The translations under genes and the position numbers were made by a program. From assembly GCA_028281025.1 (NCBI GenBank), contig JANQKR010000034.1, positions 9,848 to 73,847 on the forward strand: a stretch of 64,000 nucleotides of DNA, given 5' to 3'. Positions 22,478 through 39,834 of this stretch are shown in pieces (the stretch's first letter is position 1; each line of letters begins with the position of its first letter). This DNA is from Croceivirga sp. (lineage in GTDB: Bacteria; Bacteroidota; Bacteroidia; Flavobacteriales; Flavobacteriaceae). The notes below the pieces were generated by a model that saw only the letters and a list, made by a program, of their open reading frames with translations, was not told where the DNA came from and ran no database searches.

Positions 22478-22640
22478 GTCATTTCCAACCCGCCCAAGAA
22501 CGGAGTCGAAGGAAATAAGGGAAATCCATCATTGCTTTCTTTGGATTTCCCAGTCGCAAAACTCCTTCGAAATGACAATCGGAATCAAACAGTCATTTCG
22601 AGCCGACCCTGAGTAGAGTCGAAGGGGAGCGTGAGAAACC
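22478..22640. repeat. Cluster of three alternating REP-like palindromic units (GTCATTTC...GAAA[TC]C)
   Basis: Units at ~22478-22527 (+), 22543-22576 (-) and 22592-22640 (+); hairpins GGGAAATCCA/TGGATTTCCC and TCGAAATGAC/GTCATTTCGA. Confidence 0.75.
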
Positions 22641-22724
22641 CATACTTTAAGGAATAAATTTTCGATAGGCCAACCCTATTCCATTTGCTTCGTTAATTTC
22701 GCAAACACGTCCAATACCCACAAC

Positions 22725-23159
22725 ATGTCCCTTACTCCAGATTTTAGTATCATCCCCGCCAAAGCTTCCGAAGTAAAATCCATAGTCGATGGCATCAACA
22801 CCTATAACCTAAGTAAAGTACCGGCCTTGGCAGCGGTTTGGACCCCTTTGGAATTTGTGGCCAAAAGTAGGGATGGGAGGCTTATCGGCGGCGTCTTGGC
22901 CGGAATAGGCTATTGGAATGGACTTGAAATCAAATTGCTCTGGGTCGAAGAGGCCTACCGCAACCATGGTTTGGGGACAACACTCCTAAAACATACTGAA
23001 AAAGCCGCCAAACTAAAGGGGGCCGTAATTTCCATGTTGGATACTTTTGACTTTCAGGCCAAAGGTTTCTATTTGAAGCATGGTTATGAACCTGTTGGTG
23101 AAATCAAGGATTTTCCAAAAGGGCATAACCGAATTTATTTTTCAAAACGACTCGATTAA
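22725..23159 (+). CDS. GNAT family N-acetyltransferase
   Basis: LWVEEAYRNHGLGTTLL acetyl-CoA motif; FQAKGFYLKHGY. Confidence 0.92.
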   Translation: MSLTPDFSIIPAKASEVKSIVDGINTYNLSKVPALAAVWTPLEFVAKSRDGRLIGGVLAGIGYWNGLEIKLLWVEEAYRNHGLGTTLLKHTEKAAKLKGAVISMLDTFDFQAKGFYLKHGYEPVGEIKDFPKGHNRIYFSKRLD

Positions 23160-23281
23160 TCGTACAAGAGGGTCCGGGCAACTCTTCAGGGAACAAAAAA
23201 TCTACTGGAATCCACTATTTTCAACTTTTTTTCAATAGAAATCCCCCATTTACCGTTATAGTTCCAAAAGGATAAACGGCA

Positions 23282-24376
23282 TTGGAAGTAAAAGGTAGCT
23301 TTTGGACATCAATTTTGTCGGTTTTGATCTTGACGATAGGTTGTACCGATGAAAATGACCCAGTTTCCACTGAAGGGGCGGAACGCAATTTTGGGATGGG
23401 ATTTACCACTTGGAGCTTTGGCCCCAATCTTCAAGATGTGGACGAAACCTACCGTTTTATTGCCAATAATGCCGATGTTTATGTGGAACATTTGGACAAT
23501 ACCATTCCCTGGAACGCTTGGATAAACGATTTACCCTTGCCAGCTGAGTTTACCAATGAAATCGTGGGCAGGGCCAATCGAAAAATAGTTGGAAAGGACT
23601 TGGTGCTCTCCGTGGGTTTGCTTAATCTGGATCGTGATGATTTGGCCGCGGATTTTGATGGTTCCATTCCCACATACACCGTTTTGAACGACCCCCATAT
23701 TCAAGAGGCCTACACCAAACACATCCATTATTTGGTTACCCAATTCTCCCCAGATTATTTGGTTGCTGCCATTGAAGTAAACGAACTCTGGTTGGGAAAT
23801 CGGGCACTCTGGGAAGACTATACCCAATTAATGGCCCAAGTCTTTGCTGCCACCAAGATTACCTTTCCCAATTTAAAAATAGCCACTTCCATATCATTGC
23901 ATAATCTCCATAACCCAGCTGTGGAGAACGGGGAAGAATACATCAATGCGATACTGGGTCATGTCAACCAAATGGATTTTGTGGCCATCAGTTATTATCC
24001 TTTTTTAAAAAATCAAAGCACGATAGCTGAATTTCAGGAGACCTTGGATTTTTTGCACGGCAATACCAACAAACCAATCGCCATTGTAGAGAGCGGACAT
24101 ATTGCCGAAGATTTGATCGTATCCAATTTGGGCATTTCCATTAGTGGAAATGCAACTGAGCAGAACACCTTTCTGGAAACCCTTTTAAGCAACGCCCAAA
24201 CCCAAAATTATGAGATGGTAGTTTGGTGGGCGCATCGTGATAATGATTCACTTTGGGAGGTTTTTCCGCCCGAGGTCAAGGATATTGGACAACTATGGCG
24301 CGATACCGGTATACTGGATGAAAACGGGGTACAACGCCCCGCTTTTACAAGTTGGCGATCCTATTTTGGGAATTAA
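23282..24376 (+). CDS. Lipoprotein, probable clan GH-A glycoside hydrolase
   Basis: Lipobox TIGC; IEVNE, ISYYP and KPIAIVESG motifs. Confidence 0.7.
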   Translation: MEVKGSFWTSILSVLILTIGCTDENDPVSTEGAERNFGMGFTTWSFGPNLQDVDETYRFIANNADVYVEHLDNTIPWNAWINDLPLPAEFTNEIVGRANRKIVGKDLVLSVGLLNLDRDDLAADFDGSIPTYTVLNDPHIQEAYTKHIHYLVTQFSPDYLVAAIEVNELWLGNRALWEDYTQLMAQVFAATKITFPNLKIATSISLHNLHNPAVENGEEYINAILGHVNQMDFVAISYYPFLKNQSTIAEFQETLDFLHGNTNKPIAIVESGHIAEDLIVSNLGISISGNATEQNTFLETLLSNAQTQNYEMVVWWAHRDNDSLWEVFPPEVKDIGQLWRDTGILDENGVQRPAFTSWRSYFGN

Positions 24377-24472
24377 TTTAAAGCCGCTCCCTTAAGGATT
24401 CTTCTTATCCAAAACCCCCTTCACCATCGAAATCCTTAGATTTCTTACTTTTAAGATGTAATTCTTCCAAAA

Positions 24473-26239
24473 TTGAAAGGGCTTCCGTATATATTTTTTT
24501 TCCTGGTACTAGGGGCCGTTGATGGCCTGTGGTCCCAAACCAATGTGCAGGATAGCTTACTGCTTCGTTTTGAAAATACCAATGAACCGGACTCGGTTCG
24601 TTTCGATGCCGGCTTGGCCCTGGCACGCTTTAAAATGCGGTACGGAGCGGATAGTTCCCGGGTTATTGGGAAAAGACTGTTGGACTTTACCTTGATTACG
24701 GGAAACAAAACCTGGGAGGCCGACGCCATTAAATGGATCGGCATTACCTACGCACAACAGGGACAATTTGCAGAGGCCCATGAGTATTTTTTAAAAAATT
24801 ACGAGTTGGTCCAGGAACTAAAGGACCAAAGGGGTATTGCCATCATTTTAGGTAACATTGGTACCGTAAATTACGAAATGGGGAATTATCCCCAGGCCCA
24901 GGACTATATTTTAAGATCCCTGAAACTTGCGGAAAAACTAAATGAAGAGCCCACTATTTCCCGGGCACTGAACAATTTGGGCAATATTCACAACGACCTG
25001 GAAAATTATCAAACCTCATTGGAATACTACCAAAAAAGCCTGGCCATTAAAGAGAAAATGGGCCTTAAAAACAGCTTGCCCCTGGTCCATAACAATATTG
25101 GTTTGGCCCATTCGCAATTGAACGATCACAATCTGGCCATTGCCAGTTTCAATGAAAGTGTTCGCCTGGCGATTGAACTCAACGACCCTATTTCCGAAGC
25201 CAGGGGCTATTCCAATTTAGGAGCTCGATATGCCAAAATCAATGACTTTACCAAAGCACTGGAATTGCATGACAAAAGTGTTGACCTAAAATCAAAGATC
25301 AATGATTTGGATGGGCTGGCCTCCTCTTTGGTATCTCGCGGCCACACCTATTTGCAAATGAACCGCTTGACCAATGCCAGGGATGACTGCCTTAGGGGGC
25401 AGAAAATGTCATTGGTATCTGGGAACCGCAATCTCCTGAAGGCCGCATGTCTTTGTTTGAGTCAGGCATACAAGGGGCTTGGCGACTATAAAGCATCATT
25501 GGAATACCGCGAACATTTTTCCCAACTAAGGGATACCCTTCTCAACGAAGAACGCAGGCAGGAAGTTACCCGTGCCGAAATGAATTATGCGTTTGAAAAA
25601 AAACAATTGGCGGATAGTATCGCATTTCACAAAAAACAAACGGCCCAGCAAGTGGCCTATGAGCGCCAACTGAACAAACAGAACACCAAGTTCTATATTC
25701 TCCTTATTGTGAGTTTGGGCGTTATTGGATTCTTGACCTTTTTGTACTACAAATACCGGCAAAGCCTGAAATTGAAAAAGGTGGAAAACCAATTATTGAA
25801 TTCTGAAATTGAGTTCAAGAAAAAGGATCTGACCACCATGGCCGTCAATATTTCCAATAACCAAGAGTGGGCCGAATCCCTGGCTGAGCGATTGCAATCG
25901 CTAAAGGCCGCTACAGGACGAAAACGCCAAAAGGAATTGGAGCTTTTGGAGGAGGAAATCAAAAATAAAATTTGGGTGAACAAAGACAGTGATGACTTTT
26001 ATAAAAAAGTGGACGAACTGAGCAGCTCCTTTTATGCACGCCTCAATAAGCAGTTTGAAGGATTGACCAAAACGGACGTACGTCTTTGTTCATTCATTAA
26101 ACTGGATTTGAATACCAAACAGATTGCCACACTACAGAACATCAATCCCTCTTCAGTAAAAATGAGTCGAAATAGGCTTAGGAAGAAGCTCAACCTCTCT
26201 CCGGAAGACGATTTGTCCGCATTTTTACACGCCTTTTAG
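24473..26239 (+). CDS. Membrane-spanning TPR sensor with C-terminal LuxR-like HTH
   Basis: Signal peptide, multiple TPRs (LGNIG.V, LNNLGNIH), one TM (FYILLIVSLGVIGFLTFLYY), coiled coil, LTKTDVRLC...KQIA...SVKMSRNRLRKKLNL. Confidence 0.92.
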   Translation: MKGLPYIFFFLVLGAVDGLWSQTNVQDSLLLRFENTNEPDSVRFDAGLALARFKMRYGADSSRVIGKRLLDFTLITGNKTWEADAIKWIGITYAQQGQFAEAHEYFLKNYELVQELKDQRGIAIILGNIGTVNYEMGNYPQAQDYILRSLKLAEKLNEEPTISRALNNLGNIHNDLENYQTSLEYYQKSLAIKEKMGLKNSLPLVHNNIGLAHSQLNDHNLAIASFNESVRLAIELNDPISEARGYSNLGARYAKINDFTKALELHDKSVDLKSKINDLDGLASSLVSRGHTYLQMNRLTNARDDCLRGQKMSLVSGNRNLLKAACLCLSQAYKGLGDYKASLEYREHFSQLRDTLLNEERRQEVTRAEMNYAFEKKQLADSIAFHKKQTAQQVAYERQLNKQNTKFYILLIVSLGVIGFLTFLYYKYRQSLKLKKVENQLLNSEIEFKKKDLTTMAVNISNNQEWAESLAERLQSLKAATGRKRQKELELLEEEIKNKIWVNKDSDDFYKKVDELSSSFYARLNKQFEGLTKTDVRLCSFIKLDLNTKQIATLQNINPSSVKMSRNRLRKKLNLSPEDDLSAFLHAF

Positions 26240-26292
26240 GTATTTTTATAAGTTATTAAAAATCAGAGTGTTAAAAAACATAAAATACATTT

Positions 26293-26344
26293 TGTAACCC
26301 ATTTGTAACCCTGTTTTTGCATCCATGTAACCCATTTGTAATCC
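26293..26344 (+). promoter_or_regulatory. Four phased TGTAA[CT]CC direct repeats upstream of mddA
   Basis: Copies start at 26293, 26304, 26326 and 26337; all spacings are multiples of 11 bp. Confidence 0.75.
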
Positions 26345-26407
26345 TATACTATTCTTAGGACGGGCTTCTTCATGTCTAGGTTTGCCCCGAATTTTAATCT
26401 AAAGATC

Positions 26408-27184
26408 ATGAAGAAAATTTTAATGTTTACCTATTCCATGGTTGCCTACCTCATTGCATTTGCATCCATTCTTTTTTGGATAGCTTCTGTTGGCAACCTG
26501 ATTCCAGCAATTGGAATCGACCAAGAACCCCAAATGTCCTTTTTATGGGCATTAGCGAACAACGTACTTTTGATTTCCCTATTTGGGGTACAGCACAGCG
26601 TTATGGCGAGAAAATGGTTTAAGGAACTCTTCGCCCGTTATTTCCCAAAACCGATTGAGCGGAGCACTTTTGTTTTGGTTTCCGGACTACTGCTGTTTAA
26701 CATGGTGTACAACTGGCAACCCATTGGCGGTCAACTATGGCAAGTGGAACCCAATGGCATTTTGTTTTATGTACTCTATGCACTGTTCTTTATTGGATGG
26801 GCAATACTGTTCATCAGTTCTTTTTTAATCAACCATTTTGATTTGTTTGGGCTGCGACAAACGTTTTTGGAGTTAATGGGCAAGCCCTATACCCAATTGC
26901 AGTTCAGGGTAACCCTATTCTACAAACATGTACGGCATCCGCTCTATTTTGGTATGCTCTTGGGCATGTGGGCCACTCCGACCATGACCGTTACCCATTT
27001 GGTTTTTGCCATTGCCATTACAGCATACGTCATCATTGGAACTTTATTTGAAGAAAAAGATTTGGTGAACGAGTTTGGGGAAACCTATAAGGCATATCAA
27101 GCTAAAAAACCTATGCTCATCCCTTTTACCAAATGGCGAAAAGGAGCTAAACAAGGCCCAGTATTGACAAAGGAATTAAAATAA
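26408..27184 (+). CDS. mddA: Methanethiol S-methyltransferase (ICMT-like membrane methyltransferase)
   Basis: QHSVMAR, IERSTFVL, WQP, INHFDLFGLRQ, VRHPLY, WATP.M and EEKDL motifs characteristic of MddA. Confidence 0.85.
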   Translation: MKKILMFTYSMVAYLIAFASILFWIASVGNLIPAIGIDQEPQMSFLWALANNVLLISLFGVQHSVMARKWFKELFARYFPKPIERSTFVLVSGLLLFNMVYNWQPIGGQLWQVEPNGILFYVLYALFFIGWAILFISSFLINHFDLFGLRQTFLELMGKPYTQLQFRVTLFYKHVRHPLYFGMLLGMWATPTMTVTHLVFAIAITAYVIIGTLFEEKDLVNEFGETYKAYQAKKPMLIPFTKWRKGAKQGPVLTKELK

Positions 27185-27228
27185 CTACAAAAAATCATCA
27201 TCAAAAAACAGTAAAAAACAACGTAATC

Positions 27229-27369
27229 ATGAAAACACGAACAAACTACAAAATGCCCCTATTTTTTGGGTGGTACACCATCAACTCCAACAACCAAAGA
27301 AATCACGAAAACACCCTGAAATTGGGCAATTTTTCCAGTAAGGACTTGGAGTATCCCTACAAAAGGTAA
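27229..27369 (+). CDS. Putative 46-aa small protein (not in the ORF track)
   Basis: MKTRTNYKMPLFFGWYTINSNNQRNHENTLKLGNFSSKDLEYPYKR*, with an A-rich leader, between mddA and the terminator. Confidence 0.45.
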   Translation: MKTRTNYKMPLFFGWYTINSNNQRNHENTLKLGNFSSKDLEYPYKR

Positions 27370-27386
27370 GGACAACAAACAAATAA

Positions 27387-27412
27387 AAAGGGCATCGCTA
27401 TCGATGCCCTTT
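27387..27412. terminator. Bidirectional intrinsic terminator
   Basis: AAAGGGCATCG-CTAT-CGATGCCCTTT. Confidence 0.8.
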
Positions 27413-27434
27413 GCATTTCCCAAATCCCGGCCTT

Positions 27435-27725
27435 TCAAAGAGGATTTATGCCTCCACCTATTCCAAATTCCAGTTTTAGATGGGTATACATTACAGCTAT
27501 CCCCATTAAAAAAGCTCCAAAGAAAACGACAAGGAACAAGGGATTTTCAATACCCCGATTCATTTTCCGAAAGGCCCGCAGATAACCCAGATCGTCCAAT
27601 TGTCCAATACCAGGGGCTACGGCGTTTCCCCATGTAAAACACAGTACGGCCGTACCCCCAATTAACAGTATTGCCGTGAAAAGGGTTAGAGGACTTGTTG
27701 TCATTTCCATGTTCCATAATTCCAA
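27435..27725 (-). pseudogene. Truncated DUF1772/anthrone-oxygenase-like membrane protein
   Basis: W.NAV.PG...LDD..YLRAFR.MNR.I.NP.F N-terminal half present; the C-terminal half (GNIPLN helix onward) is absent. Confidence 0.65.
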
Positions 27726-27729
27726 TCGA

Positions 27730-28131
27730 TTATATCAACTCTTTTGTTCTTTTCCTAACCTTGAAATTCCAGTACACTAAGGTGGTGCCAATGAATTCCG
27801 CTCCAATGACCCAGAACCCCGGATCCGTAAAGAAATCATAGTAACTCCCCCCATTGGGAACAATGAGCACGGGCACCGTGATCAGGGCGTCCAAAAGGGC
27901 GGCCATGGCAAAAAAGGCCAGTCCCGTTGCCAATCCATGGGTTTGGGCCCCTTTTCTGTAGTACAGCCAAGATCCAGACCAGACCAAGGGTATTACAGCA
28001 AAAAAGAGTGTCAAATTGGCCTGTTGTTCCACATTTTCCAGTATTGGCAGATAAAAGGAAAGGGAATAGGCCAGAACTCCCAAAAACCAGATCAAGCCTC
28101 CAATTGCCAATGTTCTAAAAGTTTTCATCAC
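27730..28131 (-). CDS. DUF5367-like 4-TM membrane protein
   Basis: LDALITVP and FFTDPGFW motifs; four hydrophobic helices. Confidence 0.7.
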   Translation of the reverse strand: MMKTFRTLAIGGLIWFLGVLAYSLSFYLPILENVEQQANLTLFFAVIPLVWSGSWLYYRKGAQTHGLATGLAFFAMAALLDALITVPVLIVPNGGSYYDFFTDPGFWVIGAEFIGTTLVYWNFKVRKRTKELI

Positions 28132-28153
28132 TGTTTGTTTTAGGATTATGGGA

Positions 28154-28217
28154 CAAAACTAGAGCAGCTTAAATGGGGGCATTTGTCCAAAAAGGAGAAT
28201 GATTTGTTCGAAAAGGA
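28154..28217 (-). promoter_or_regulatory. -7 promoter element plus two 16-bp direct repeats with a 21-bp period (candidate AraC-family sites)
   Basis: TAGTTTTG on the minus strand at 28154-28161; ATTTGTCCAAAAAGGA (28181) and ATTTGTTCGAAAAGGA (28202). Confidence 0.6.
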
Positions 28218-28239
28218 TAACTTTTAACGCACTGCAAAA

Positions 28240-28606
28240 ACCGTATCAGGGCCTTTTATAGTTTAAAAGCTTACTTCAAAAGAAGGGGTCACGCTACGAG
28301 AAGAAATATGGCTGTCAGCTCTTTTTTAAGGCAGGACTGCACGCCGGAATTGTTACGGTGACCGAAGTGGGTAAATACAAGAAAGAAATCGCCTATCACG
28401 GGGACGTCATCAATACAGCAGCATGTATCCAGGTAAAATGCAATGCTTTTGAACGGGAATTATTGATTTCACAGGAATTGAAAACCCAATTGAATTCCAA
28501 CAACTACAGTTGTGCCCATATGGGCAGTATCCCCCTTAAGGGCAAACAGCAAACTGTCGATATCTGCTCGGTATCCCCAAAAACCCAATTGAGATCAGCT
28601 TCGTAA
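28240..28606 (+). pseudogene. C-terminal relic of a class III adenylate/guanylate cyclase
   Basis: FKAGLHAG.V.V.EVG..KKEIAYHGDVINTAACIQ and LKGK motifs; no N-terminus, an upstream frameshift, and the catalytic Arg replaced by Cys. Confidence 0.8.
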
Positions 28607-29455
28607 CTCACTTGGCCGAAAGCCGAATTTTTTGGTAAATGCATTGGAAAAGGAACTCAGGCTATCATAGCCCACATGCCAGGCCGCTTCCTGTACCGTA
28701 GCCTCTTTGTTTCGGATAAGTTCATGGGCCTTGGTCATACGTTCATTTTGCAGGTATTTAAAAACGGGAACCCCAAAAAGTTCCTTGAATTCCTTTTTCA
28801 GGGCAAAGGTATTCAATCCTATTTGCTTGGAAAGTTCCGTAAGCGAAGGGGGGCTGTCCAGATTATTGGACAGGATTTCCTGGGCCACAAATAGCTTTTC
28901 CCGTTCGGAGGTATTGATACTTTGGGTTTTCATTTGTGACAGTTGCCAAAAAAAGTGGGACAACAATGCCGTGATCTGGCTACGGAAGAACATCATCTTT
29001 GCTTTTCCCTGATAGTCATTGGAAAAAATATTGTCCACAATATGTTGCATTTCCGGTGTCATGAAAAAGCGGGGACCTTCCACGTAGGATGCAGCCGGAT
29101 TGACCAGTTGTTCCAACAGTTCCGTAAACAGCTCCCCTTCCCCATTGGGCAGGTTTTTCAAGTTTCTTGGGGCGGTGGCAATGACCAAACATTGCAGTGG
29201 TTTTTCCGGGGAGATGGTATGCACGGAATCCACGGTATCGTCCGCATAAAAGGAGAGGGCCAAACCTTTGGTGTTGTCATAGGTATTCCGGGTATCCCCA
29301 TGGTTCATGGAAAGATGCACATTCCCGGAACCATAAAGGGCCACGGCAATCAAGGGTTCTTCAAAACGACAGGAATCGACCAAAACCTCTTGGGTATGGG
29401 CTTCCTCCACCAGAATGATAAAATCGTTGATGTTAATGGTATCACGTATCACCAC
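28595..29455 (-). CDS. AraC family transcriptional regulator (GTG start)
   Basis: PPSLTELSKQIGLN...LKKEFKELFG and VQEAAWHVGYDSLSSFSNAFTKKFG double HTH. Confidence 0.93.
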   Translation of the reverse strand: MVIRDTININDFIILVEEAHTQEVLVDSCRFEEPLIAVALYGSGNVHLSMNHGDTRNTYDNTKGLALSFYADDTVDSVHTISPEKPLQCLVIATAPRNLKNLPNGEGELFTELLEQLVNPAASYVEGPRFFMTPEMQHIVDNIFSNDYQGKAKMMFFRSQITALLSHFFWQLSQMKTQSINTSEREKLFVAQEILSNNLDSPPSLTELSKQIGLNTFALKKEFKELFGVPVFKYLQNERMTKAHELIRNKEATVQEAAWHVGYDSLSSFSNAFTKKFGFRPSELRS

Positions 29456-29518
29456 AAGTGGAAATTAGGCAAAATAGCAATGCACAGCAAATAGGAAAGC
29501 ATGTCAAATGTCATAAAA
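29168..29518. repeat. Copy 1 of a ~351-bp direct repeat (araC 5' end plus upstream region)
   Basis: Aligns without gaps to 31776-32126, ~19 mismatches by manual count. Confidence 0.9.
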
Positions 29519-29707
29519 CAGAGTTCTAAGTTCTGCTATTTTAGTGTGCATTTATAAGAAAAAACTTTAATCATTATAGTCATTTATTTACTAAAACTAT
29601 ACTGATTTCTAAACCCACAGTACCAAACAGCTTAAATCCATATGGGGACCACATTTAGTTATTGCCTACCAGACCTTGAAAAGTAAATGAATTTTAAAAG
29701 AATTATT

Positions 29708-30415
29708 ATGAAAGCAAAAATTTTGATTACACTGTTTCTAGTATCATCCGATTTTGTGTTAGGGCAATGGAATGATAGCGGAAACAACTACACCACAGGA
29801 AAGTTGGGAATTGGAACCACGTCTTTGAGTATTGGTTATACGGGGGTCAATGATTTGGTAATAGGAGATGCCTCATGGAGTGAGGGATTTGTTATCAATG
29901 CAAATTCAAATAATGATGGAATTATGGCTTTTGCAAGTGATGGAAATATGGTAGCACGATTTATTTACAACAACCCTACGGAGAAGTTGCACTATTACAA
30001 AACAGGAAAAGGCAATTTAATGACGATTGATGGAAATGGAAAAGTAGGAATTGGAACAGAAAACACGGGAAATCATAAACTTGCCGTTGAAGGATCGATC
30101 GGAGCTCGGGAAATCAAAGTAGAGACAAATGGTTGGTCAGACTTTGTCTTTAAGAAAGACTATGATTTACCTACCCTGCAACAAGTTGAAAAGCATATTG
30201 AAGAAAAAGGACACCTTAAGGATATTCCAAGTGCCAAAGAGGTAGCGGAAAATGGAATCTTCCTGGGGGAAATGGACTCCAAATTACTTCAAAAAATAGA
30301 GGAACTGACGCTTTATACCATTCAACAAGAAAAGAAAATAGATAAACAAGCAGACGAAATTGCGGAGTTAAAGAGTCTTGTCAAACAGCTACTGGCGTCA
30401 AAAAATAAAAGCTGA
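29708..30415 (+). CDS. Secreted GIGT-repeat fibre-like protein with a Bacteroidota S74/ICA-like C-terminal domain and coiled coil
   Basis: Signal peptide; GKLGIGT and GKVGIGT; DFVFKKDYDLPTLQQVE..I...GHL..IPSA...LLQKIEELTLY motif. Confidence 0.85.
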   Translation: MKAKILITLFLVSSDFVLGQWNDSGNNYTTGKLGIGTTSLSIGYTGVNDLVIGDASWSEGFVINANSNNDGIMAFASDGNMVARFIYNNPTEKLHYYKTGKGNLMTIDGNGKVGIGTENTGNHKLAVEGSIGAREIKVETNGWSDFVFKKDYDLPTLQQVEKHIEEKGHLKDIPSAKEVAENGIFLGEMDSKLLQKIEELTLYTIQQEKKIDKQADEIAELKSLVKQLLASKNKS

Positions 30416-30450
30416 CAAAAACGAATAATCCATTTAAACCAAAAATTATC

Positions 30451-31680
30451 ATGAAAAAATGCACACTATCATTTTTGTTTTTCCTTTCGCTATATTTTTC
30501 ATTCTCCCAAACTGTCTATATACCGAATGGAACTGGCGGAATAACAAATTCATCCAATTCCAACATCGGAATTGGAACGAATTGGCCCGATAAAAAGTTT
30601 ACTGTTTTTGGTGATGTTCGGTTGGCTTCGGACGGACTGGGCGGAGGATTCCAAAGAAACGGTCTTTTAATACAGAATAGTGGTACAAGAACGGAACTGA
30701 GATGGCAGCATTTTGGACAAAACACAAACCCCTATATTGCTGTCGACCCCGCATTTGATGCCGCCAAATTATTGTTTGGCACTAATGGATCTGACCAAAT
30801 GGTACTTCAATCCAACGGAAATGTAGGAATTGGAACAACGTCCCCATTAAGCCCATTGCATATACGTTCTTCAATCAATAGAACGCTTCGATTGGATAAA
30901 ACCAATGTCCCAAATGGATCATATACCTGGCAAGCCCTGGAAACCAATTCTGTTGAACAATGGAGAATTGTTGGTAGGGAGTCCGATAATGCTGGATTGG
31001 AATTCTGGAACAAGAACTCCGACAATGTTTTATCCTTAATGCAAAATGGAAACATAGGGATAGGCGCTACTAACCCAAGTGAAAAACTTGATCTTAGTAA
31101 ATGGATGTCTTACAATGTAGTAAATGATAGTGGGATTAAGTTGGGCAACCTTAACGAGACCAGTGTAAACAACCATAAATCCCATTCTTACACACTTAAA
31201 ACATTTGGAGATGCCAATGGTATCCGGTTAGGTATTGTTCAACAGAGCAGAATTAGAAATGAAGTTGAGGTTCTTTCCATTTTGAATGATAATGTTGGTA
31301 TCGGAACAAAGGCTCCCGACATGAAACTGACCGTAAAAGGAAATATACACGCTGAGGAAGTGAAAATTGACCTTAATGTCCCTGCCCCGGATTATGTCTT
31401 TAAAGAAGGTTATATGCTAAGAAGTATTGAGGAAGTGGAAAGATTTGTCCAGGAAAACAACCACCTTCCCGAAATACCTTCTGCAGCAGAGTTCAAGCAA
31501 AATGGGGTGATGCTTGCAGAAATGGATATGAACCTGCTTAAAAAAATAGAGGAACTGACCCTTTATACCATTCAACAGGAAAAGAAAATAAAAAAACTTG
31601 AAGAAGAGAACCAAAAACTAAAATCCCTATCCAATAGGTTATCCAAAATAGAAAAACTACTACTGAAAGCTAAAAAATAA
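30451..31680 (+). CDS. Second secreted GIGT-repeat fibre-like protein with the same C-terminal domain
   Basis: Signal peptide; four GIGT/GIGA repeats; PDYVFKEGY.LRSIEEVE.F...NHLPEIPSA...LLKKIEELTLY motif. Confidence 0.87.
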   Translation: MKKCTLSFLFFLSLYFSFSQTVYIPNGTGGITNSSNSNIGIGTNWPDKKFTVFGDVRLASDGLGGGFQRNGLLIQNSGTRTELRWQHFGQNTNPYIAVDPAFDAAKLLFGTNGSDQMVLQSNGNVGIGTTSPLSPLHIRSSINRTLRLDKTNVPNGSYTWQALETNSVEQWRIVGRESDNAGLEFWNKNSDNVLSLMQNGNIGIGATNPSEKLDLSKWMSYNVVNDSGIKLGNLNETSVNNHKSHSYTLKTFGDANGIRLGIVQQSRIRNEVEVLSILNDNVGIGTKAPDMKLTVKGNIHAEEVKIDLNVPAPDYVFKEGYMLRSIEEVERFVQENNHLPEIPSAAEFKQNGVMLAEMDMNLLKKIEELTLYTIQQEKKIKKLEEENQKLKSLSNRLSKIEKLLLKAKK

Positions 31681-31733
31681 AAGGTTCGGATACGGATTAT
31701 CCGTTACGCCCTGTCCTAGCACAACCCATGGGT

Positions 31734-32060
31734 TTACCGCCTTGGGAAGTGAGTTCCTACGCCCACTTCCGTTGGTGGGGCGGTGGCCATGACCAAGCAT
31801 AGCAGTGGTTTTTCCGGGAAAATGGTATGCACGGAATCCACGGTATCGTCCGCATAAAAGGAGAGGGCCAAACCTTTGGTGTTGTCATAGGTATTCCGGG
31901 TATCTCCATGGTTCATGGAAAGATGCACATTCCCGGTACCATAAAGGGCCACGGCAATCAAGGGTTCTTCAAAACGACAGGACTCGACCAGCACTTCTTG
32001 GGTATGGGCTTCCTCCACCAGAATGATAAAATCGTTGATGTTAATGGTATCACGTATCAC
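31734..32060 (-). pseudogene. 5' fragment of a duplicated AraC regulator
   Basis: First ~95 aa nearly identical to 28595-29455, then unrelated sequence; no HTH. Confidence 0.9.
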
Positions 32061-32126
32061 AACAGGTGGAATTTAGGCAAAATAGCAACGCACCACAAAT
32101 GGGAAAGCCTGTCAAATGTCATAAAA
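31776..32126. repeat. Copy 2 of the ~351-bp direct repeat
   Basis: Aligns without gaps to 29168-29518. Confidence 0.9.
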
Positions 32127-32289
32127 GTATTGTGTATGTTGTACTAATTTCACATGTGGCTTTAGAGATGAAACCTTAGTTTTTTTTCCAAGGTCCCGTG
32201 CAATACAATCTGTACAAGAGTAAAATAACATCAACCCTTGTCCTAGGGATTTAAATATTTATACAAAGAATACGCATTAATTCCATTCA

Positions 32290-33720
32290 GTGGCATCAAG
32301 AGTTAAATCCATGAGATATCCCCATTCATTTCCTTACTTTCAAGAAAGAATCAATATCAATTTCGCAATAAACAAGTTTTGTTACTCATTGTTCATACTA
32401 CTAATTTCATTTATCTATAGCTGTGATAGTGAAAATGATGATGCCGAATTATTAGGGACAACAACGTTGAGCAGCACCGTTGTCTCAAACATCGAATCAA
32501 AGTCCGCGATCTTTAAAGCTTCAATCAATAACAATGGAGGTTCAGAACTTGTGCAGGGCGGATTCGTTTTTAGCAAAGAGTCAAATCCAAGCATAAACGA
32601 TAATATGCTCCTTGTTTCCGATTTAACTTCAGGGGATTTCACATCAACAGTATCTGATTTGGATGCAAATACGGTGTACTTTGTACGAGCTTTTGCCGAA
32701 AACAAAGTTGGAATCATTTATGGGGATGAAAGTAGTTTCGCCACCAATCATTTTATCCACGAAGGTTTCATTCAGCTTAAAACCCAAGGGGAACTTGATA
32801 ATTTTGGAAGTTTGGGCTATACGATCATAAATGGGAATGTAATCATAGGAGACTCCCAAGAATCAAATATCGTTTCATTAAATAGCTTGGAAAGCTTAAC
32901 TGAAATTAAAGGAAATATGGCGATTTTAGGTACTACTGACCTTGCGTCCCTACAGGGATTGCACAATATCAAAAGGGTTTATGGCGTATCAATTAGTGAA
33001 GCTGCAAGCCTAACCAATATTGATCCATTAAAAAACATAACCTCCATAGATGGCTATTTAGGTGATAATCGGTATATCGTTTCGTATTTCACAAACAATG
33101 AAAATTTATCAAATATCGATGGGTTAAGTAATGTTTCAAATATTGAAGGATACCTACAATTTATTAACAATAAATCGTTAACGAATCTTGATGGATTAAG
33201 AAATATCAATTCTTTTATAGGCGGTATACAAATAGCTAGAAATCAAAGCTTGGCGAATATTGACGGCCTCTCGAGTATCACTTCCATGATCAGCTTGGAT
33301 ATAGATGGAAATCCCTTGATAACAAATTTGGATGGGTTATCCAATTTAACTTCCGTTGAAGGATATTTACATATTTCAGGGATTAACTTGAGTAATATTG
33401 ATGGTTTGTCCAAGCTTGCCTCACTTGGACGCTTTTTAAATATTTATGACACTAAACTAACCCATTTGGACGGTCTTGTAAATCTAACTTCGGTAAGTTC
33501 AATCAATATTAGCCGTAACCCTGACCTAATAAGCATTGATGGGTTAAAAAATGTAAATTCCATTGAAGGATTTAGTTTTCATGACAACGTGAAGCTATCG
33601 GATTTTTGCAGTATTTCAGATGTATTTATGAAGGATTCGTCAACTACATTATCCATTCATCGTAATGCATACAATCCCACAAAACAAGATTTGATCAATG
33701 GTGCTTGTACTAAGCAATAA
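32290..33720 (+). CDS. FN3 plus receptor-L-domain/LRR lipoprotein (true start probably downstream of 32290)
   Basis: Lipobox IYSC; YFVRAFAENKVG FN3-like; ~22-aa LTN[IL]DGLxxLTSV.G.L.I repeats; AT-rich. Confidence 0.85.
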   Translation: MASRVKSMRYPHSFPYFQERININFAINKFCYSLFILLISFIYSCDSENDDAELLGTTTLSSTVVSNIESKSAIFKASINNNGGSELVQGGFVFSKESNPSINDNMLLVSDLTSGDFTSTVSDLDANTVYFVRAFAENKVGIIYGDESSFATNHFIHEGFIQLKTQGELDNFGSLGYTIINGNVIIGDSQESNIVSLNSLESLTEIKGNMAILGTTDLASLQGLHNIKRVYGVSISEAASLTNIDPLKNITSIDGYLGDNRYIVSYFTNNENLSNIDGLSNVSNIEGYLQFINNKSLTNLDGLRNINSFIGGIQIARNQSLANIDGLSSITSMISLDIDGNPLITNLDGLSNLTSVEGYLHISGINLSNIDGLSKLASLGRFLNIYDTKLTHLDGLVNLTSVSSINISRNPDLISIDGLKNVNSIEGFSFHDNVKLSDFCSISDVFMKDSSTTLSIHRNAYNPTKQDLINGACTKQ

Positions 33721-34073
33721 TGTAATTATCGTTAACAATAATTGCAAATCATTTGTTTATCACCGGACGGACTGTGGTTTAGCACCAAAGTGAACGTCGT
33801 AATCAAACCGTCGGATTTTGACTTCCAACAATCCTTGTTTTAACAATTTAGGTTCACCATTGAATGATTCCGAAATACCGTAATTGTTGGGACCATGTCG
33901 TAACTTATGTCTGTTGTAAGTGTTATGATTACTTCATCTTTAAAACTCTTGTTTTCCATTGTTCAAAGAAATGATTTTCCACAATCCAGTAAAACCAAAC
34001 GATTATCAATAAAAACAAAATCGACTGTGACAAAATCCAGTTTCAATCGTCTTGGTTGAAAATCACATTAAAA

Positions 34074-34730
34074 ATGAAAACTCAAAAAATTGGGGGGATA
34101 GCGGCCCTAATTGAAGCACTGCTCTACATCATCGGTATTGCCTTTCTTTTTATGGTCCTGTCCCCTGCTATGGACGATACAAGTTCGGATACCGAAAAAT
34201 TAGCGTTTATCCTTGAAAACAAAACCTTGTACCAAGTTTGGCACCTTTTGATCTACGTGGTTTTTGGATTGGTACTCGTCCCTTTGACCGTTGCCATACA
34301 CGAAAACTTCAGTGCCAATTCGGCAATTGGCAAAAAGGTCATGCCAATACTTGGGTTTATTTGGTCGGCATTGGTCATTTCCAGTGGAATGATAAGCAAT
34401 ATAGGCCTGGAAACGGTCAATGGTCTATTCATTGAAGAGGAAACGACCGCAGTAACGGCCTGGGAAATCATCGGTGCCATTCAAAATGGTCTTGGCGGTG
34501 GTGTGGAAGTGGTAGGCGGACTCTGGGTATTTCTTATAAGCATCCATGGATTAAAGGAAAGCATTTTCCCCAGATTCCTTAACTATCTTGGACTGCTTGT
34601 TGGAGGTGCCGGAATACTAACGGCAGTTCCTGGATTGGGAGACTTGGGACTCCTTTTTGGACTTACCCAAATCCTTTGGTTTGGTTGGATTGGAGCAGCT
34701 ATGATACAACATAAAAATCCTTCGATTTGA
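34074..34730 (+). CDS. DUF4386-like membrane protein
   Basis: KIGGIAAL, GLGGGVE and hydrophobic helices. Confidence 0.75.
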   Translation: MKTQKIGGIAALIEALLYIIGIAFLFMVLSPAMDDTSSDTEKLAFILENKTLYQVWHLLIYVVFGLVLVPLTVAIHENFSANSAIGKKVMPILGFIWSALVISSGMISNIGLETVNGLFIEEETTAVTAWEIIGAIQNGLGGGVEVVGGLWVFLISIHGLKESIFPRFLNYLGLLVGGAGILTAVPGLGDLGLLFGLTQILWFGWIGAAMIQHKNPSI

Positions 34731-36008
34731 TCAAAATACCTTTCTCACTGCTTCCAGGGTCTTTGCCAAATCCGAATAACTGATGGCATCATTTAAAAAG
34801 TAACTTTCAAAAGCCGAAGGCGGAAGATATATCCCCTGCTCCAACATGCCATGAAAGTATTTTTTGAAGGTATCGTTATTGCCCTTTGCGGATGAGGTAA
34901 AATCCACTACCGGATGCTCACAAAAATGTACGGAAATCATACTTCCAAAACGGTTGATTTGATGGGCAATGCCTTTTTCGGTCAACACTTCGGTAATTCC
35001 CTTATGGAGGTATTCCGTTTTTTGCATCAGGTTATCGAATACCTCGGGGTTTTGGTCTATTTCGGTCAACATGGCCAAGCCTGCGCCCATGGCCAAAGGA
35101 TTACCGCTTAAAGTTCCCGCTTGATAGACCGGTCCCTCTGGGGCCAAATGTGCCATGATTTCAGCTCTGGCGGCAAAAGCGCCTACCGGCAAACCTCCAC
35201 CTATGACCTTGCCAAACATCACAATATCCGCATCAATGCCCAAGGCCTCTTGTGCCCCACCCTTTGCCAAACGAAAACCGGTCATTACCTCATCAAAAAG
35301 CAACAGTATTTCTTCTTGAGTGCAAATTTCACGTAGCCCTTTTATAAAATCCTCGGAAGGCACAATACACCCCATATTACCGGCAACTGGTTCCAAAATA
35401 ATACCTGCGATTTCCCCTTTATTGGCTTCCACCAGGGCTTTCACACCTTCCAAATCGTTATAATCGGCCAATAAGGTATCCTTGGCCGTACCCTGCGTGA
35501 CCCCCGGGCTGTTGGGACTTCCGAAGGTTACCGCACCACTGCCCGCCTGAATCAAAAATGAATCCGAATGTCCGTGGTAGCAACCGGCAAATTTGATGAT
35601 TTTATCTTTTCCGGTATACCCCCTTGCCAGGCGTACGGCACTCATACATGCTTCGGTCCCGGAATTCACAAAACGAATTTTATCAATATTGGGAACCATA
35701 TGTACGGCAAGTCTGGCTAAGTCCGTTTCAACCTCTGTAGGAATACCAAAGGAAGTTCCTTTTTGTGCTTTTTCAATTACCGCATTGATAACAGGTCCAT
35801 GGGCATGACCAAATAACAACGGGCCCCAAGATGAGATATAATCAATGTATTGATTCCCATCTTCATCATATAAATAGGCCCCTTTGGCCTGTTTGATAAA
35901 AATAGGCTCCCCACCTACGGCCTTAAATGCCCGTACGGGTGAATTGACCCCACCTGGTATATATCTTTTTGCTTCTGCAAACAATGCACTGCTTCGCTGG
36001 TATCGCAT
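34731..36008 (-). CDS. hemL: Glutamate-1-semialdehyde 2,1-aminomutase
   Basis: [38 protein letters not shown] and QAGTLSGNP motifs. Confidence 0.98.
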
Positions 36009-36013
36009 CTCTC

Positions 36014-36859
36014 CTATTTTGACTTTACCTTCCTTAAATTGAGCACTTGCCCAATGGCTATGTTGGTGTTTTTTAGATTGTTCAACTGCATGATTTCCTG
36101 TACGGAAACCGCATACTTCTTTGATATGCCATAAAGGGTGTCCCCCTTTTTCACTACATGGGTAAAAACCTCATAGTCCTTCGTTTTGCGAACGGTTTCC
36201 AGGCCTCCATCCACAACTGCCTCATCAAATTTGTCCAAGTTGTACCGATCGATCAGGGCAATCAATTTTTGGGGGTATTTCTTATCGGTCGCGTATCCTG
36301 CCTTTTTTAAACCATGGGCCCACTTCTTATAGTCGTCCCTGCGGTAATTGAACAAAAACCGATAACGCGAACGGGATGCCAAAAAGATACTATGATCCCG
36401 AAACGAAAACATGGGATGGTTGTACTTTCGAAAACACTCCCCTTTGGCATCATCATCATGGAAATCATAATCCCCTTGCCATCCACTGTGACATTTTATC
36501 CCAAAATGATTGTTGGTCTTTTGGGTAAGTTCCCCCCTGCCCGAGCCGCTCTCCAAAATCCCTTGGGCCAGTGTAATACTGGCCGGGATACCAAAAGCCC
36601 GCATTTCGTATTGCGCTATTTGGGCAAATTCCTCGATATAATCCTGGGTGGATGCAATTGGAAACTTTTTAAAAAAGCCAGGGTCGGCAGGTAATGGATA
36701 CAATTCCGATGTCTTGAACTTAGTGGATTCAATTCCTGTATTGGGGGTATACACCACCTTTTTTTGCGGTTGCTGCTTCACCGTGCGGGCGGTACGCTTT
36801 TTTGCGCCGCACCCTACTAAAAACAAAATGGCAATACTGCCTAAAAAACGTGTAATCAT
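36014..36859 (-). CDS. GH73 glucosaminidase plus LysM lipoprotein
   Basis: [19 protein letters not shown] and GYATD motifs; C-terminal [16 protein letters not shown] LysM. Confidence 0.93.
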
Positions 36860-37764
36860 AGATTGATTAACGGTAAATTCTTCTTTTTCAGTACCTCGTT
36901 CATGCCAAAGATTCCTTGTAAACCCCCTGTATGGATGGCCAAAATCTTCGTCCCCGCCTTAAACTGATTGTTCGCAATCATATCCAGCAGACCAAAAAAT
37001 AGCTTTCCCGTATATACGGGATCGGAAGCAATCCCTGTTTGTTCCTTAAACGCATTGATGCTTGCAATAAGCTCAGGGGTTACCTTGGCATATCCCCCAA
37101 AATGGTAATCAGTAATCAATTTCCAATTGGGTTTGGTCACAAATTTACGAATGGAATCGATTAAAAAATCACCTTTTAAGGCAGGGAAGCCCAAAACCTG
37201 TTGATGTGCTGCAGTTGCATTGATAAGTCCAGCCATCGTACCTCCGGTGCCCACACAGGTGGCAATGATATCAAATTCCGTATCGTCCTGTGTCAAAATT
37301 TCCTTGCAGCCCTTTACGGCCAAGGCATTTGTGCCTCCCTCTGGTAGTAGGTAAAAATCCCCATATTCCATTAGTAGTTTTCGAACAAAGGCCCTATCAT
37401 CTTTGGTTCGGTACGTTTCCCTACTTACAAAATGAAATCGCATGCCATATTCGGAGGCCAGTTTCAATGTGGGATTGGTCCCCCAATCCTTTTTGAGCTC
37501 TTCCCCGCGTATGACCCCAATGGTCCCAAAACCATACTCTTTTCCGGCACAGGCCACCGCAGCAATATGGTTGGAGAAGGCTCCGCCAAAGGTGAGCAGT
37601 ACGTCAAAATTTTGTGCTTTTGCCCTTTGCAGATTGTACTTTAGCTTACGGTATTTGTTCCCTGAAATAACGGGGTGAAGAAGGTCTTCCCGTTTCACGG
37701 CAAGGTTTACCTGCTTTTTGGAAAGTAAAGGAAGGGCAATCTGCTGATTGGGGATGTGGTTCAA
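36856..37764 (-). CDS. ACC deaminase/D-cysteine desulfhydrase family PLP enzyme
   Basis: KREDLLHP.ISGNKYRKL, SNH, GTGGT, DPVYTGK and HTGG motifs. Confidence 0.93.
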   Translation of the reverse strand: MNHIPNQQIALPLLSKKQVNLAVKREDLLHPVISGNKYRKLKYNLQRAKAQNFDVLLTFGGAFSNHIAAVACAGKEYGFGTIGVIRGEELKKDWGTNPTLKLASEYGMRFHFVSRETYRTKDDRAFVRKLLMEYGDFYLLPEGGTNALAVKGCKEILTQDDTEFDIIATCVGTGGTMAGLINATAAHQQVLGFPALKGDFLIDSIRKFVTKPNWKLITDYHFGGYAKVTPELIASINAFKEQTGIASDPVYTGKLFFGLLDMIANNQFKAGTKILAIHTGGLQGIFGMNEVLKKKNLPLINL

Positions 37765-38097
37765 TTAGGGCCTAAAAATATAGTTTAGAAAGCTATAGGG
37801 TTTTCTCCTGTCCGTATAGCCCAAATCCATTTCGTTGGCATAGGCTTCCCGTTCAAAGCTGATGTTTTGATAGGCCCTGTAGCTGTCCAAATACAGAAAG
37901 GTCCGCACCACCCATTCCAAAATATACCAAAAATAAAAGGGGACTACCAATAGTTCCAACTGCTGTTTTAGATGGATTTTCTCATGGTTAATAAGCACCA
38001 CATCATCTTTATGGCTATCTTCTTTTACAATAATAAAGGGCCAAAGGGTAAGACCCACGTAGTTTTTCCTAAAGAAATGTCTAAAAACCAATATCAT
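37765..38097 (-). CDS. Conserved small protein with HExxH and downstream FEREAY (possible mini-zincin)
   Basis: NHEKIHLKQQ...ISFEREAY. Confidence 0.8.
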   Translation of the reverse strand: MILVFRHFFRKNYVGLTLWPFIIVKEDSHKDDVVLINHEKIHLKQQLELLVVPFYFWYILEWVVRTFLYLDSYRAYQNISFEREAYANEMDLGYTDRRKPYSFLNYIFRP

Positions 38098-38289
38098 ATT
38101 TCAGTTCCTTTTATGAACCTATCTTGATGGTGGGGTAAACAAATATACTTTTTTCTTTTTCCCAACGGAATAAACCGGGTTTAACGGCCATTATTTTGGA
38201 TGAAACCCTAAGAAGTCCTTAAAATCCTTTAAAATACGCCGTTTGAAGTGTAACTTAGTGTAACTTTGAGAATAGCAAGGATAAGCTAA

Positions 38290-38451
<162 letters not shown>

Positions 38452-38523
38452 CTTGGTTTTCGGCATAATATTTGTGGTGGTTTAAGGAAAGTTCGCTTTC
38501 GGTTTAACTCAAAAAAATATGCT

Positions 38524-39138
38524 ATGAAAAAGATAAAACTACTTACCTTACCCTTAGTACTACTGCTATTTCTAACCTCCTGTTCAACGGTACAGGTCAT
38601 TGCCGATTATGACAGACAGGTGAATTTTAATGAATATAGGACCTATGCCTTTTACAAAACGGGCATTGATAGGGCCCAAATATCCGATTTGGACAAAAAA
38701 CGTATTCTCAAAGCCATTGAAACCGAAATGGCCAACAGGGGCTTCACCAAATCCCGAAACCCAGATATTCTGGTAAGCATCTTTACCAAGGAACGCGAAC
38801 AGGTAGATGTCTTCAACAACAACTTTGGTTGGGGTTGGGGAGGAATTGGCTGGGGCGGCTGGGGCTGGGGCGGCTGGGGCTGGAATCCTTGGATCTGGGG
38901 CCCTGGATGGGGCTGGGGCGGAGGCTGGGGTCCAAACGTTTCCACCCGCACCGAAGGCTCGTTGTATATTGACCTTATCGATGCCAACAACAAAGAACTG
39001 GTATGGCAAGGGCGTGGTGTTGGCACATTGAACAACACCAAAAACATAGACAAAAAAGAAGACCGTATACGAAAGTTCGTTTCAGAGATATTGGAAGAAT
39101 ATCCCCCAAACCGGGAAATTGCGGCAAATGGCCTTTAA
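38524..39138 (+). CDS. DUF4136 family lipoprotein
   Basis: Lipobox LTSC; DYDRQVNF..YRTYAF, Gly/Trp-rich loop and EGSLYIDLID...ELVWQG. Confidence 0.9.
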   Translation: MKKIKLLTLPLVLLLFLTSCSTVQVIADYDRQVNFNEYRTYAFYKTGIDRAQISDLDKKRILKAIETEMANRGFTKSRNPDILVSIFTKEREQVDVFNNNFGWGWGGIGWGGWGWGGWGWNPWIWGPGWGWGGGWGPNVSTRTEGSLYIDLIDANNKELVWQGRGVGTLNNTKNIDKKEDRIRKFVSEILEEYPPNREIAANGL

Positions 39139-39318
39139 GGCCTTTTGAAACCTTATAGTAAAGCGAAGAATCTACTGCCCCCGATGTTTTGTTTGAGTGT
39201 TTATTGTGGTCATGGGGTGATAGGTTCTTCGTTTTCATGGTATTGATCCAATTTCCGTCCAATACGTTAAGCCTATTGCCTACAATCTTTTTATCTTTAG
39301 GGTAAGACCTGGAATGCA

Positions 39319-39825
39319 ATGGAATACTATCTGGCCCAAGCCAATATTGCTCGTTTTAAAGCGCAACTGGACCATCCCATAATGAAGGAATTTGTGGATT
39401 TTTTAGAGCCCGTCAACAAATTTGCAGAAGAGAGTCCTGGTTTTGTTTGGCGTTTGAAAGACGACCAGGGAAGGCCGGCCTCCTATATCCAATCTCCCTT
39501 TAAGGATGAAAACATGGCCGTAAACATTAGTCTTTGGGAAGACGTGGATGCCTTTAAAGCTTTCGTTTATGGTTCAGTACACAGCTATTTTTTACGGAGT
39601 AAAAAAAAATGGTTCGATGTAAAGGGCCCATCCCAATTTGTACTATGGTGGTTGCCCAAGGGGGAGCTGCCCACCTTGGATATGGCAAAGGAGAAACTGG
39701 AACTCCTGGAACAAAACGGAGCATCTCCGCAGGCCTTTACCATGGCGGAGTTCTATAATTGCACGGGCCAAAGAATAGCCGCTCCACTTTCACGCCAACG
39801 TATGAAGCACAACAGTTCAGAATAA
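39319..39825 (+). CDS. DUF3291 domain protein
   Basis: LAQANIA, AEESPGFVWRL, N.SLWE and VLWW motifs. Confidence 0.85.
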   Translation: MEYYLAQANIARFKAQLDHPIMKEFVDFLEPVNKFAEESPGFVWRLKDDQGRPASYIQSPFKDENMAVNISLWEDVDAFKAFVYGSVHSYFLRSKKKWFDVKGPSQFVLWWLPKGELPTLDMAKEKLELLEQNGASPQAFTMAEFYNCTGQRIAAPLSRQRMKHNSSE

Positions 39826-39834
39826 TAATAAACC

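Follow-up and report, generated by a model that had tools for sequence, protein, structure and literature searches.

At capsule and O-antigen loci, cassettes of surface-structure genes are exchanged between conserved flanking genes. Foreign DNA can also be added through homology-facilitated illegitimate recombination (HFIR), in which one end uses a homologous anchor and the other is joined at a microhomology. HFIR has been shown in the transformation of Acinetobacter baylyi, Streptococcus pneumoniae and Pseudomonas stutzeri (PMC6382021), and in experiments its joints measure 3-10 bp according to a passage of the same source that cites de Vries & Wackernagel 2002, Prudhomme et al. 2002 and Meier & Wackernagel 2003. 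Here we analyze a 64,000-nucleotide stretch of Croceivirga sp. DNA (G000:C26:9848-73847, hereafter the window) in which the 5' end of an araC-family regulator gene occurs twice as a direct repeat, with two fibre-like genes between the copies and a leucine-rich-repeat (LRR) lipoprotein gene beyond the second. The account that we find on balance probable is that DNA of a relative, carrying the LRR gene and a broken araC allele, entered this locus by one-sided homologous and microhomology joining of the HFIR kind.

The window is part of a 49-contig draft genome with a completeness of 99.7%, a contamination of 1.0% and a GC content of 43.0%. It was compared with the 18 other genomes of a 19-genome genus set from the Muricauda/Flagellimonas group. 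The loci used most are those of 'Flavobacteriaceae bacterium GF1' (G001), Muricauda sp. SCSIO 64092 (G004), GCA_009797885.1 (L029), a TARA scaffold (L024) and a Logan contig (L028). Two more distant genus members, G010 (locus L005) and G006 (locus L008), were also considered.

Results

The LRR segment splits a spacer that is whole in relatives

The resident gene order in relatives is araC, an array of fibre-like genes, a 173-nt spacer, the gene for a 224-aa membrane protein and hemL. In G001, G004, L029 and L024 the spacer is uninterrupted and holds neither the LRR gene nor the truncated araC allele that forms the second repeat copy (copy B), and none of the four has a second araC copy at all. 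The gene is also single-copy in 13 other genus genomes, with a second partial match in one, G016. The extra DNA in the window is thus ~31795-34012, 2,218 nt made up of copy B and the LRR gene segment (Table 1). More exactly, 31795-34012 replaces 13 nt of L029 and 31777-34012 replaces 32 nt of L024. Synteny with L029 is unbroken over 22631-30839 (93.3%) and holds again over 34013-39874 (93.9%), and the DNA upstream of the intact araC gene's own repeat copy (copy A) stays homologous to G001 and G004.

The initial annotation had taken the two fibre-like genes for foreign cargo acquired at araC. They do lie on AT-richer DNA, as it reported (37-39% GC versus 43.0% for the genome), but they are residents, because close relatives carry fibre-like genes at the same place and the synteny with L029 runs through the first and into the second. 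Fibre-like genes lie directly and divergently upstream of araC in G001 (one), G004 (three), L029 (three) and L024 (two). The protein of fibre-like gene 1 is 95% and 91% identical to its positional counterparts in G001 and G004, and fibre-like gene 2 is a mosaic whose N-terminal ~130 aa and C-terminal domain match gene 2 of G001 and whose last 25 aa match gene 3. The site of uptake moves accordingly: the DNA that relatives lack sits in the spacer, 2.3 kb upstream of araC, and not in araC itself.

The paralogue family of the fibre-like genes yields 26 (G000), 23 (G001) and 28 (G004) matches, and the smaller genus genomes have few or none. Its members share a signal peptide, GN[IV]GIGT motifs and a conserved C-terminal region of ~110 aa that ends in a coiled coil, and further tandem arrays occur at G000:C37:729359-737882 and G000:C29:33001-38817. 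The array next to araC holds one, two or three genes depending on the relative, with a constant 5' end of the first gene and 3' end of the last, a pattern suggestive of unequal exchange among the paralogues.

The LRR gene is an orphan without mobile-element hallmarks

With a GC content of 35.1%, the LRR gene falls in the lowest 2.1% of the genome's 1.4-kb windows, and the best non-self match of its product among 5.8 billion proteins has only 38% identity. Segment 32127-34012 has no similarity elsewhere in its own genome, where the LRR gene has no paralogue either, and none of the 18 other genus genomes carries this 1.9 kb at its araC locus. Matches in G004 are limited to two short stretches of ~72% identity more than 2 Mb away from its araC locus. 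An orphan of atypical composition, the LRR gene was probably acquired. Gene callers begin it 33 codons later, which gives a product of 443 aa. An FIYSC sequence near residue 45 resembles a lipoprotein signal. The first ~140 residues are similar to the N-terminal part of a model for the Bacteroides BT0360 arabinanase (NF049889), at E=3e-12 but falling far short of the model's cut-off.

A transposon, an insertion sequence or an integrase-borne island was considered as the carrier and rejected. No recombinase open reading frame (ORF) or Pfam match is present in 29519-34055, in line with the lack of integrase and transposase that had been noted before, and there are no convincing terminal inverted repeats (the arms are 70-82% complementary). 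The target lost 13 nt and gained no target-site duplication.

The joints suggest an imprecise import

At the left joint, spacer position 31775 is linked to position 285 of araC (31776), a junction that is novel with respect to the relatives. The empty-site spacer reads AGCGGTGGTCGTGCCCCATTGCAATG and araC reads GGCGGTGGCAATGACCAAACATTGCAGTG. The two share the exact 7-mer GCGGTGG at the crossover and a second 7-mer nearby, within patchy similarity over 28 nt whose local alignment score of 11 is matched by 3% of random window pairs. On the right side, homology to the relatives resumes around CAAT/ATAAAC. Between these joints copy B is continuous with the flank of the LRR gene, which is divergent from it, and the changeover lies 66 nt upstream of the start of copy B.

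Table 1. Features of the araC locus, in window coordinates.
Feature	Position	Strand	Description
AraC-family regulator gene, 285 aa	28595-29452	minus	HTH_18 at residues 208-285 (Pfam E=7e-18); beta-rich N-terminal part
Repeat copy A	29168-29518	minus	araC codons 1-95 and 66 nt upstream; 19 mismatches to copy B
Fibre-like gene 1, 242 aa, signal peptide	29687-30415	plus	divergent from araC; weak PHROG tail-fibre match
Fibre-like gene 2, 409 aa, signal peptide	30451-31680	plus	PHROG tail-fibre matches (E=1e-12)
Spacer, left part	31681-~31794 (31681-31775 outside the joint zone)		alignable with the G001, G004, L029 and L024 spacers as far as the joint
108-aa ORF	31734-32060	minus	95 AraC residues and 13 read-through residues from the spacer; no helix-turn-helix, no Pfam family
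Joint zone, spacer/araC overlap	31776-31794		exact GCGGTGG and patchy similarity
Repeat copy B	31776-32126	minus	truncated araC allele, codons 1-95 and 66 nt upstream
Low-GC orphan segment with LRR lipoprotein gene	32127-34012 (gene 32290-33720)	plus	Pfam Recep_L and LRR_EndoS; lipoprotein-type signal
Spacer, right part	34013-34055		95% identity to G001, 93% to G004; 13 nt from the left part in relatives
Conserved 224-aa membrane protein (DUF4386-like)	34056-34730	plus	followed by hemL; right flank, candidate homologous anchor

We envision a donor from a related lineage that would have carried the LRR gene, rather than a fibre array, upstream of araC. The incoming DNA would have been a single linear piece composed of an araC stump, the LRR gene and right-flank homology. 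Its right end would have recombined by homology on the side of the spacer, the 224-aa gene and hemL, and its left end, broken inside araC, would have met the nearest microhomology and been joined there illegitimately, at the cost of 13 nt. Two clean crossovers would have exchanged one cassette for the other; the sloppy left joint would instead have added the LRR cassette together with the araC stump, making the 351-nt direct repeat a by-product of the import. Such an event would explain why orphan DNA adjoins copy B exactly 66 nt upstream of its start and why the fibre and LRR cassettes now lie next to each other. The upstream edge of araC is also where the gene order differs in G010 and G006. 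In this group, the interval from araC to the 224-aa gene and hemL is occupied by surface-protein genes that vary between genomes.

The same arrangement and the same joint would also follow from an event of opposite polarity, the alternative closest to the initial annotation. Here the ancestor would have had a B-type araC, the LRR gene and the 224-aa gene, and would have taken up the left flank, araC with copy A, the fibre array and the left part of the spacer. A homologous crossover on the left, together with joining of the donor's spacer end at GCGGTGG inside the resident araC, would strand copy B, and its decay (see below) would start at this event; the fibre-like genes, also under the genome's GC content, would be the incoming DNA. 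However, a fibre array stands at araC in all four other lineages, and the LRR gene is absent from that place in each of them, so that the fibre arrangement is what the group has in common and the LRR gene is the rare state. Moreover, the joint would fall inside the homologous anchor and so produce a duplication rather than the usual small deletion, and neither copy A nor the flanks are unusually near any known relative (93-96%). We therefore consider the opposite polarity unlikely.

The repeat pair is not produced by the assembly

The two copies align without gaps over 351 nt, and a direct count gives 19 mismatches and 94.6% identity, exactly the extent and divergence that had first been estimated by hand. 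An automated repeat search recovered a 300-nt core of the pair. Similarity is lost abruptly at both edges, and the mismatch positions leave perfectly matching blocks of 83, 65 and 45 nt.

Since copies A and B differ by about as much as related species do and the genome is a draft in many contigs, one might suspect that fibre-type and LRR-type strain variants of the locus had been strung into one contig. The Logan assembly of run SRR20820735 is independent of the deposited one and contains a contig that is 100% identical to window 29423-31851 and another that is 100% identical to 32031-39720. The first runs from fibre-like gene 2 through the spacer into copy B, joint included, and has five B-specific variants. 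Both contigs end inside blocks that are identical between A and B, as expected of a true repeat. A mis-join of k-mers at the spacer/copy B joint is itself unlikely because the sequence common to both sides is only ~7-10 nt there, far under assembler word sizes, and the completeness and contamination values of the draft also speak against an artefact. We reject misassembly on the strength of the independent contigs and the short overlap and regard an artefact of this kind as extremely unlikely.

Copy B resembles a separate allele

Over the 351 nt, copy A differs from copy B at 19 positions, from L028 at 18, from L024 at 19 and from G001 at 20; in the search of the genus genomes, the matches in G001 and G004 are 95% identical to copy A. 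Copy B differs from L028 at 15, from G001 at 19, from G004 at 24 and from L024 at 28. With 19 differences to A and 15-28 to the orthologues of other species, L028 being the nearest, copy B is at a roughly similar distance from all of them, and it is not a recent copy of A. The proposal that the repeats are two alleles from different strains gains from this, since B has the appearance of a separate allele. The tree analysis suggested at the outset leaves it undecided between that and an old origin in place. We placed A and B among five close lineages and four outgroups, using a full-gene tree, a 351-nt tree and approximately unbiased (AU) tests. The intact araC alleles form a star without internal resolution in the full-gene tree, B is one more ray in the 351-nt tree, and a sister relationship of A and B is neither supported nor rejected (AU p=0.40).

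These results bear on a two-step origin in situ, in which 29168-31775 would have been duplicated in tandem (2.6 kb) via GCGGTGG and the second fibre array later replaced by the LRR gene or lost to decay, with the 5% divergence between A and B recording the age of the duplication. The link between the spacer and araC position 285 is exactly the joint expected of such a tandem duplication, two informative sites unite A and B against the rest, and the AU test does not reject their sisterhood. Four other sites, three of them clustered, instead group A with L024 against B, G001, L028 and G004, and at synonymous positions B is nearer L028 (4) than A (6). Two rare events would be needed on this course, whereas a single event is enough for the import. 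Only 351 nt are repeated, and 32127-34012 matches nothing else in the genome, so no trace of a second array is present. If B had evolved neutrally since a duplication, the synonymous distance would lead one to expect ~9 changes at nonsynonymous sites, and 4 are seen (Poisson p ~0.05), a hand estimate that counts as weak evidence against this course. Taken together, we view duplication in place followed by replacement as improbable.

Several points nevertheless weigh against the import that we prefer. The sisterhood of A and B is not rejected, and with a star phylogeny an old in-situ copy is a possible origin of B. A search with the LRR protein and with the boundary between copy B and the LRR flank covered the 19 genus genomes, the 5.8 billion proteins and metagenome and genome contigs; it turned up no donor-type genome, with a full araC beside this LRR gene, and nothing above 38% identity. 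Comparing identity in sliding windows along both flanks with L029, L024 and L028 revealed no step, and the right flank, at ~86-98% to L029, delimits no donor tract. With the structure present in one genome only, the roles of resident and incoming cassette could be reversed. Finally, we know of no natural transformation or other route of DNA entry in this organism.

Copy B appears to be decaying

Copy B retains its start codon and its 66-nt leader, so the description of it as a truncated gene that keeps its upstream region holds. The 108-aa ORF that it opens has been deposited as a protein from this contig only. Intact AraC is strongly conserved: the protein is 98-99% identical to six other full-length alleles, and this identity among the seven holds despite a DNA divergence of 5-7%. 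Copy B carries four changes, S42T, S81F, Q87L and I91M, that occur in none of the seven intact alleles. Over the 95 codons its lineage-unique changes number 1 synonymous and 4 nonsynonymous, against 13 and 3 across the five functional lineages used for comparison (Fisher p=0.025), an excess that argues for relaxed constraint. This points to a decaying scar rather than a maintained regulator without its helix-turn-helix (HTH) domain.

The possibility that the locus is a maintained device has to be weighed in this light. Such a device would be either a switch, in which RecA excises or amplifies the fibre-like genes between the repeats, or an expressed 108-aa product that interferes with AraC, as initially proposed. 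The identical blocks within the repeats and the retained start codon and leader are compatible with it, and so is the division of the predicted AraC structure (AlphaFold), which places the beta-rich part before residue ~95 and helices after it. The predicted local distance difference test score (pLDDT) of that model is <50 for most of residues 1-179, so that it is usable for secondary structure only, as a hint; what it hints is that the strands end near residue 93 and that helices, a likely interface, follow. The N-terminal part of the model is unreliable, and the four unique amino-acid changes of B, set against the 98-99% identity of the intact alleles, disfavour an interfering fragment. Since the structure is known from one genome only, conservation lends a device no support. 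We judge a maintained device of either form very unlikely.

Leaders and neighbours of araC

The two 66-nt araC leaders share the motif TGACATTTGACA. Both (29453-29518 and 32061-32126, minus strand) keep the block TTTTATGACATTTGACA, which holds the direct repeat TGACA-TT-TGACA and lies exactly at the outer edge of the 351-nt repeat; this block may be an operator of AraC itself or a promoter element. A scan for sigma-70 promoters and terminators returned counts at the level of shuffled sequence, a scan ill-suited to Bacteroidota promoters. Within araC, ~10 nt inside the inner end of copy A, 29178-29195 can form a hairpin (GCAATG-ACCAAA-CATTGC) followed by a T-run, and in the counterpart in copy B the stem is degraded (GCCATG...CATAGC).

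On the other side of araC, 28132-28606 holds the remnant of an adenylate/guanylate-cyclase gene, between araC and a DUF5367 gene. At the corresponding place L028 has an intact cyclase gene of 324 aa, 705 nt of which are missing from the window. A 9-nt overlap (28234-28242) between the two alignment pieces of the remnant is suggestive of a deletion through microhomology, and L029 is also in the deleted state. The DUF5367 gene downstream of araC is conserved in L005 and L008. The gene upstream of araC differs each time, encoding a PAP2/haloperoxidase-like protein in L005 and a 372-aa outer-membrane-like protein in L008. In the gene orders compared, synteny breaks recurrently at the upstream edge of araC.

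Discussion

Our results indicate that the feature at this locus is most likely a recombination scar beside an acquired orphan gene, a footprint of genome evolution of an ordinary and known kind that reveals no new mechanism, element or regulator. Its value lies in its clarity. It is a clean natural example of a gene gained via one homologous arm and one microhomology joint, with a truncated duplicate of the flanking gene as the footprint, and footprints like this one can help to reconstruct how cassettes were exchanged at the variable surface-protein loci of marine Flavobacteriaceae. The locus also carries a lesson for reading genomes: a direct repeat does not mark the DNA between its copies as cargo, and cargo can be recognised only by an empty site in relatives.

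The identical blocks in the repeats are long enough that RecA could in principle delete the fibre-like genes and leave a chimeric, intact araC beside the LRR gene. This raises the idea that the present structure is the trapped intermediate of a two-step cassette swap, in which an imprecise import would be followed by RecA deletion of the fibre-like genes via the 351-nt homeologous repeats, so that surface proteins next to araC would be toggled or sorted without a dedicated recombinase. We mention this speculation as distinctly doubtful.

Comparison with described systems places the locus among them and brings out what sets it apart. Copy A belongs to a full member of the AraC/XylS family with a C-terminal HTH_18 domain; copy B covers only residues 1-95, has no DNA-binding domain and loses homology at codon 95. 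Direct repeats of a homologous segment that flank DNA are also the product of Campbell-type integration, in which a circle enters by a single crossover and the added DNA lies between the repeats. At this locus the fibre-like genes between the repeats sit in all relatives that have no repeat; the fibre-like genes are therefore not the added DNA, and the Campbell-type reading does not apply. The likeness to capsule and O-antigen exchange lies in a variable block of genes for secreted or surface proteins, consisting of one, two or three fibre-like genes or the LRR gene, with araC on one side and the 224-aa gene and hemL on the other. The difference is that both cassettes stand side by side here, separated by a stump of the flanking gene, and that no biosynthetic locus is involved.

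The closest parallel is HFIR itself. In contrast to the transformation experiments, the event is read here from a natural genome, with a putative donor and anchor tract, and the direct repeat arises because the "foreign" end is homeologous to a gene that the recipient already has 2.3 kb away. As in HFIR, foreign DNA would have been added beside a homologous anchor. At its other end the joint lies in a short microhomology whose exact 7 nt fall within the documented 3-10 bp, the recipient lost few bases (13 nt), and neither a recombinase gene nor element ends accompany the new DNA.

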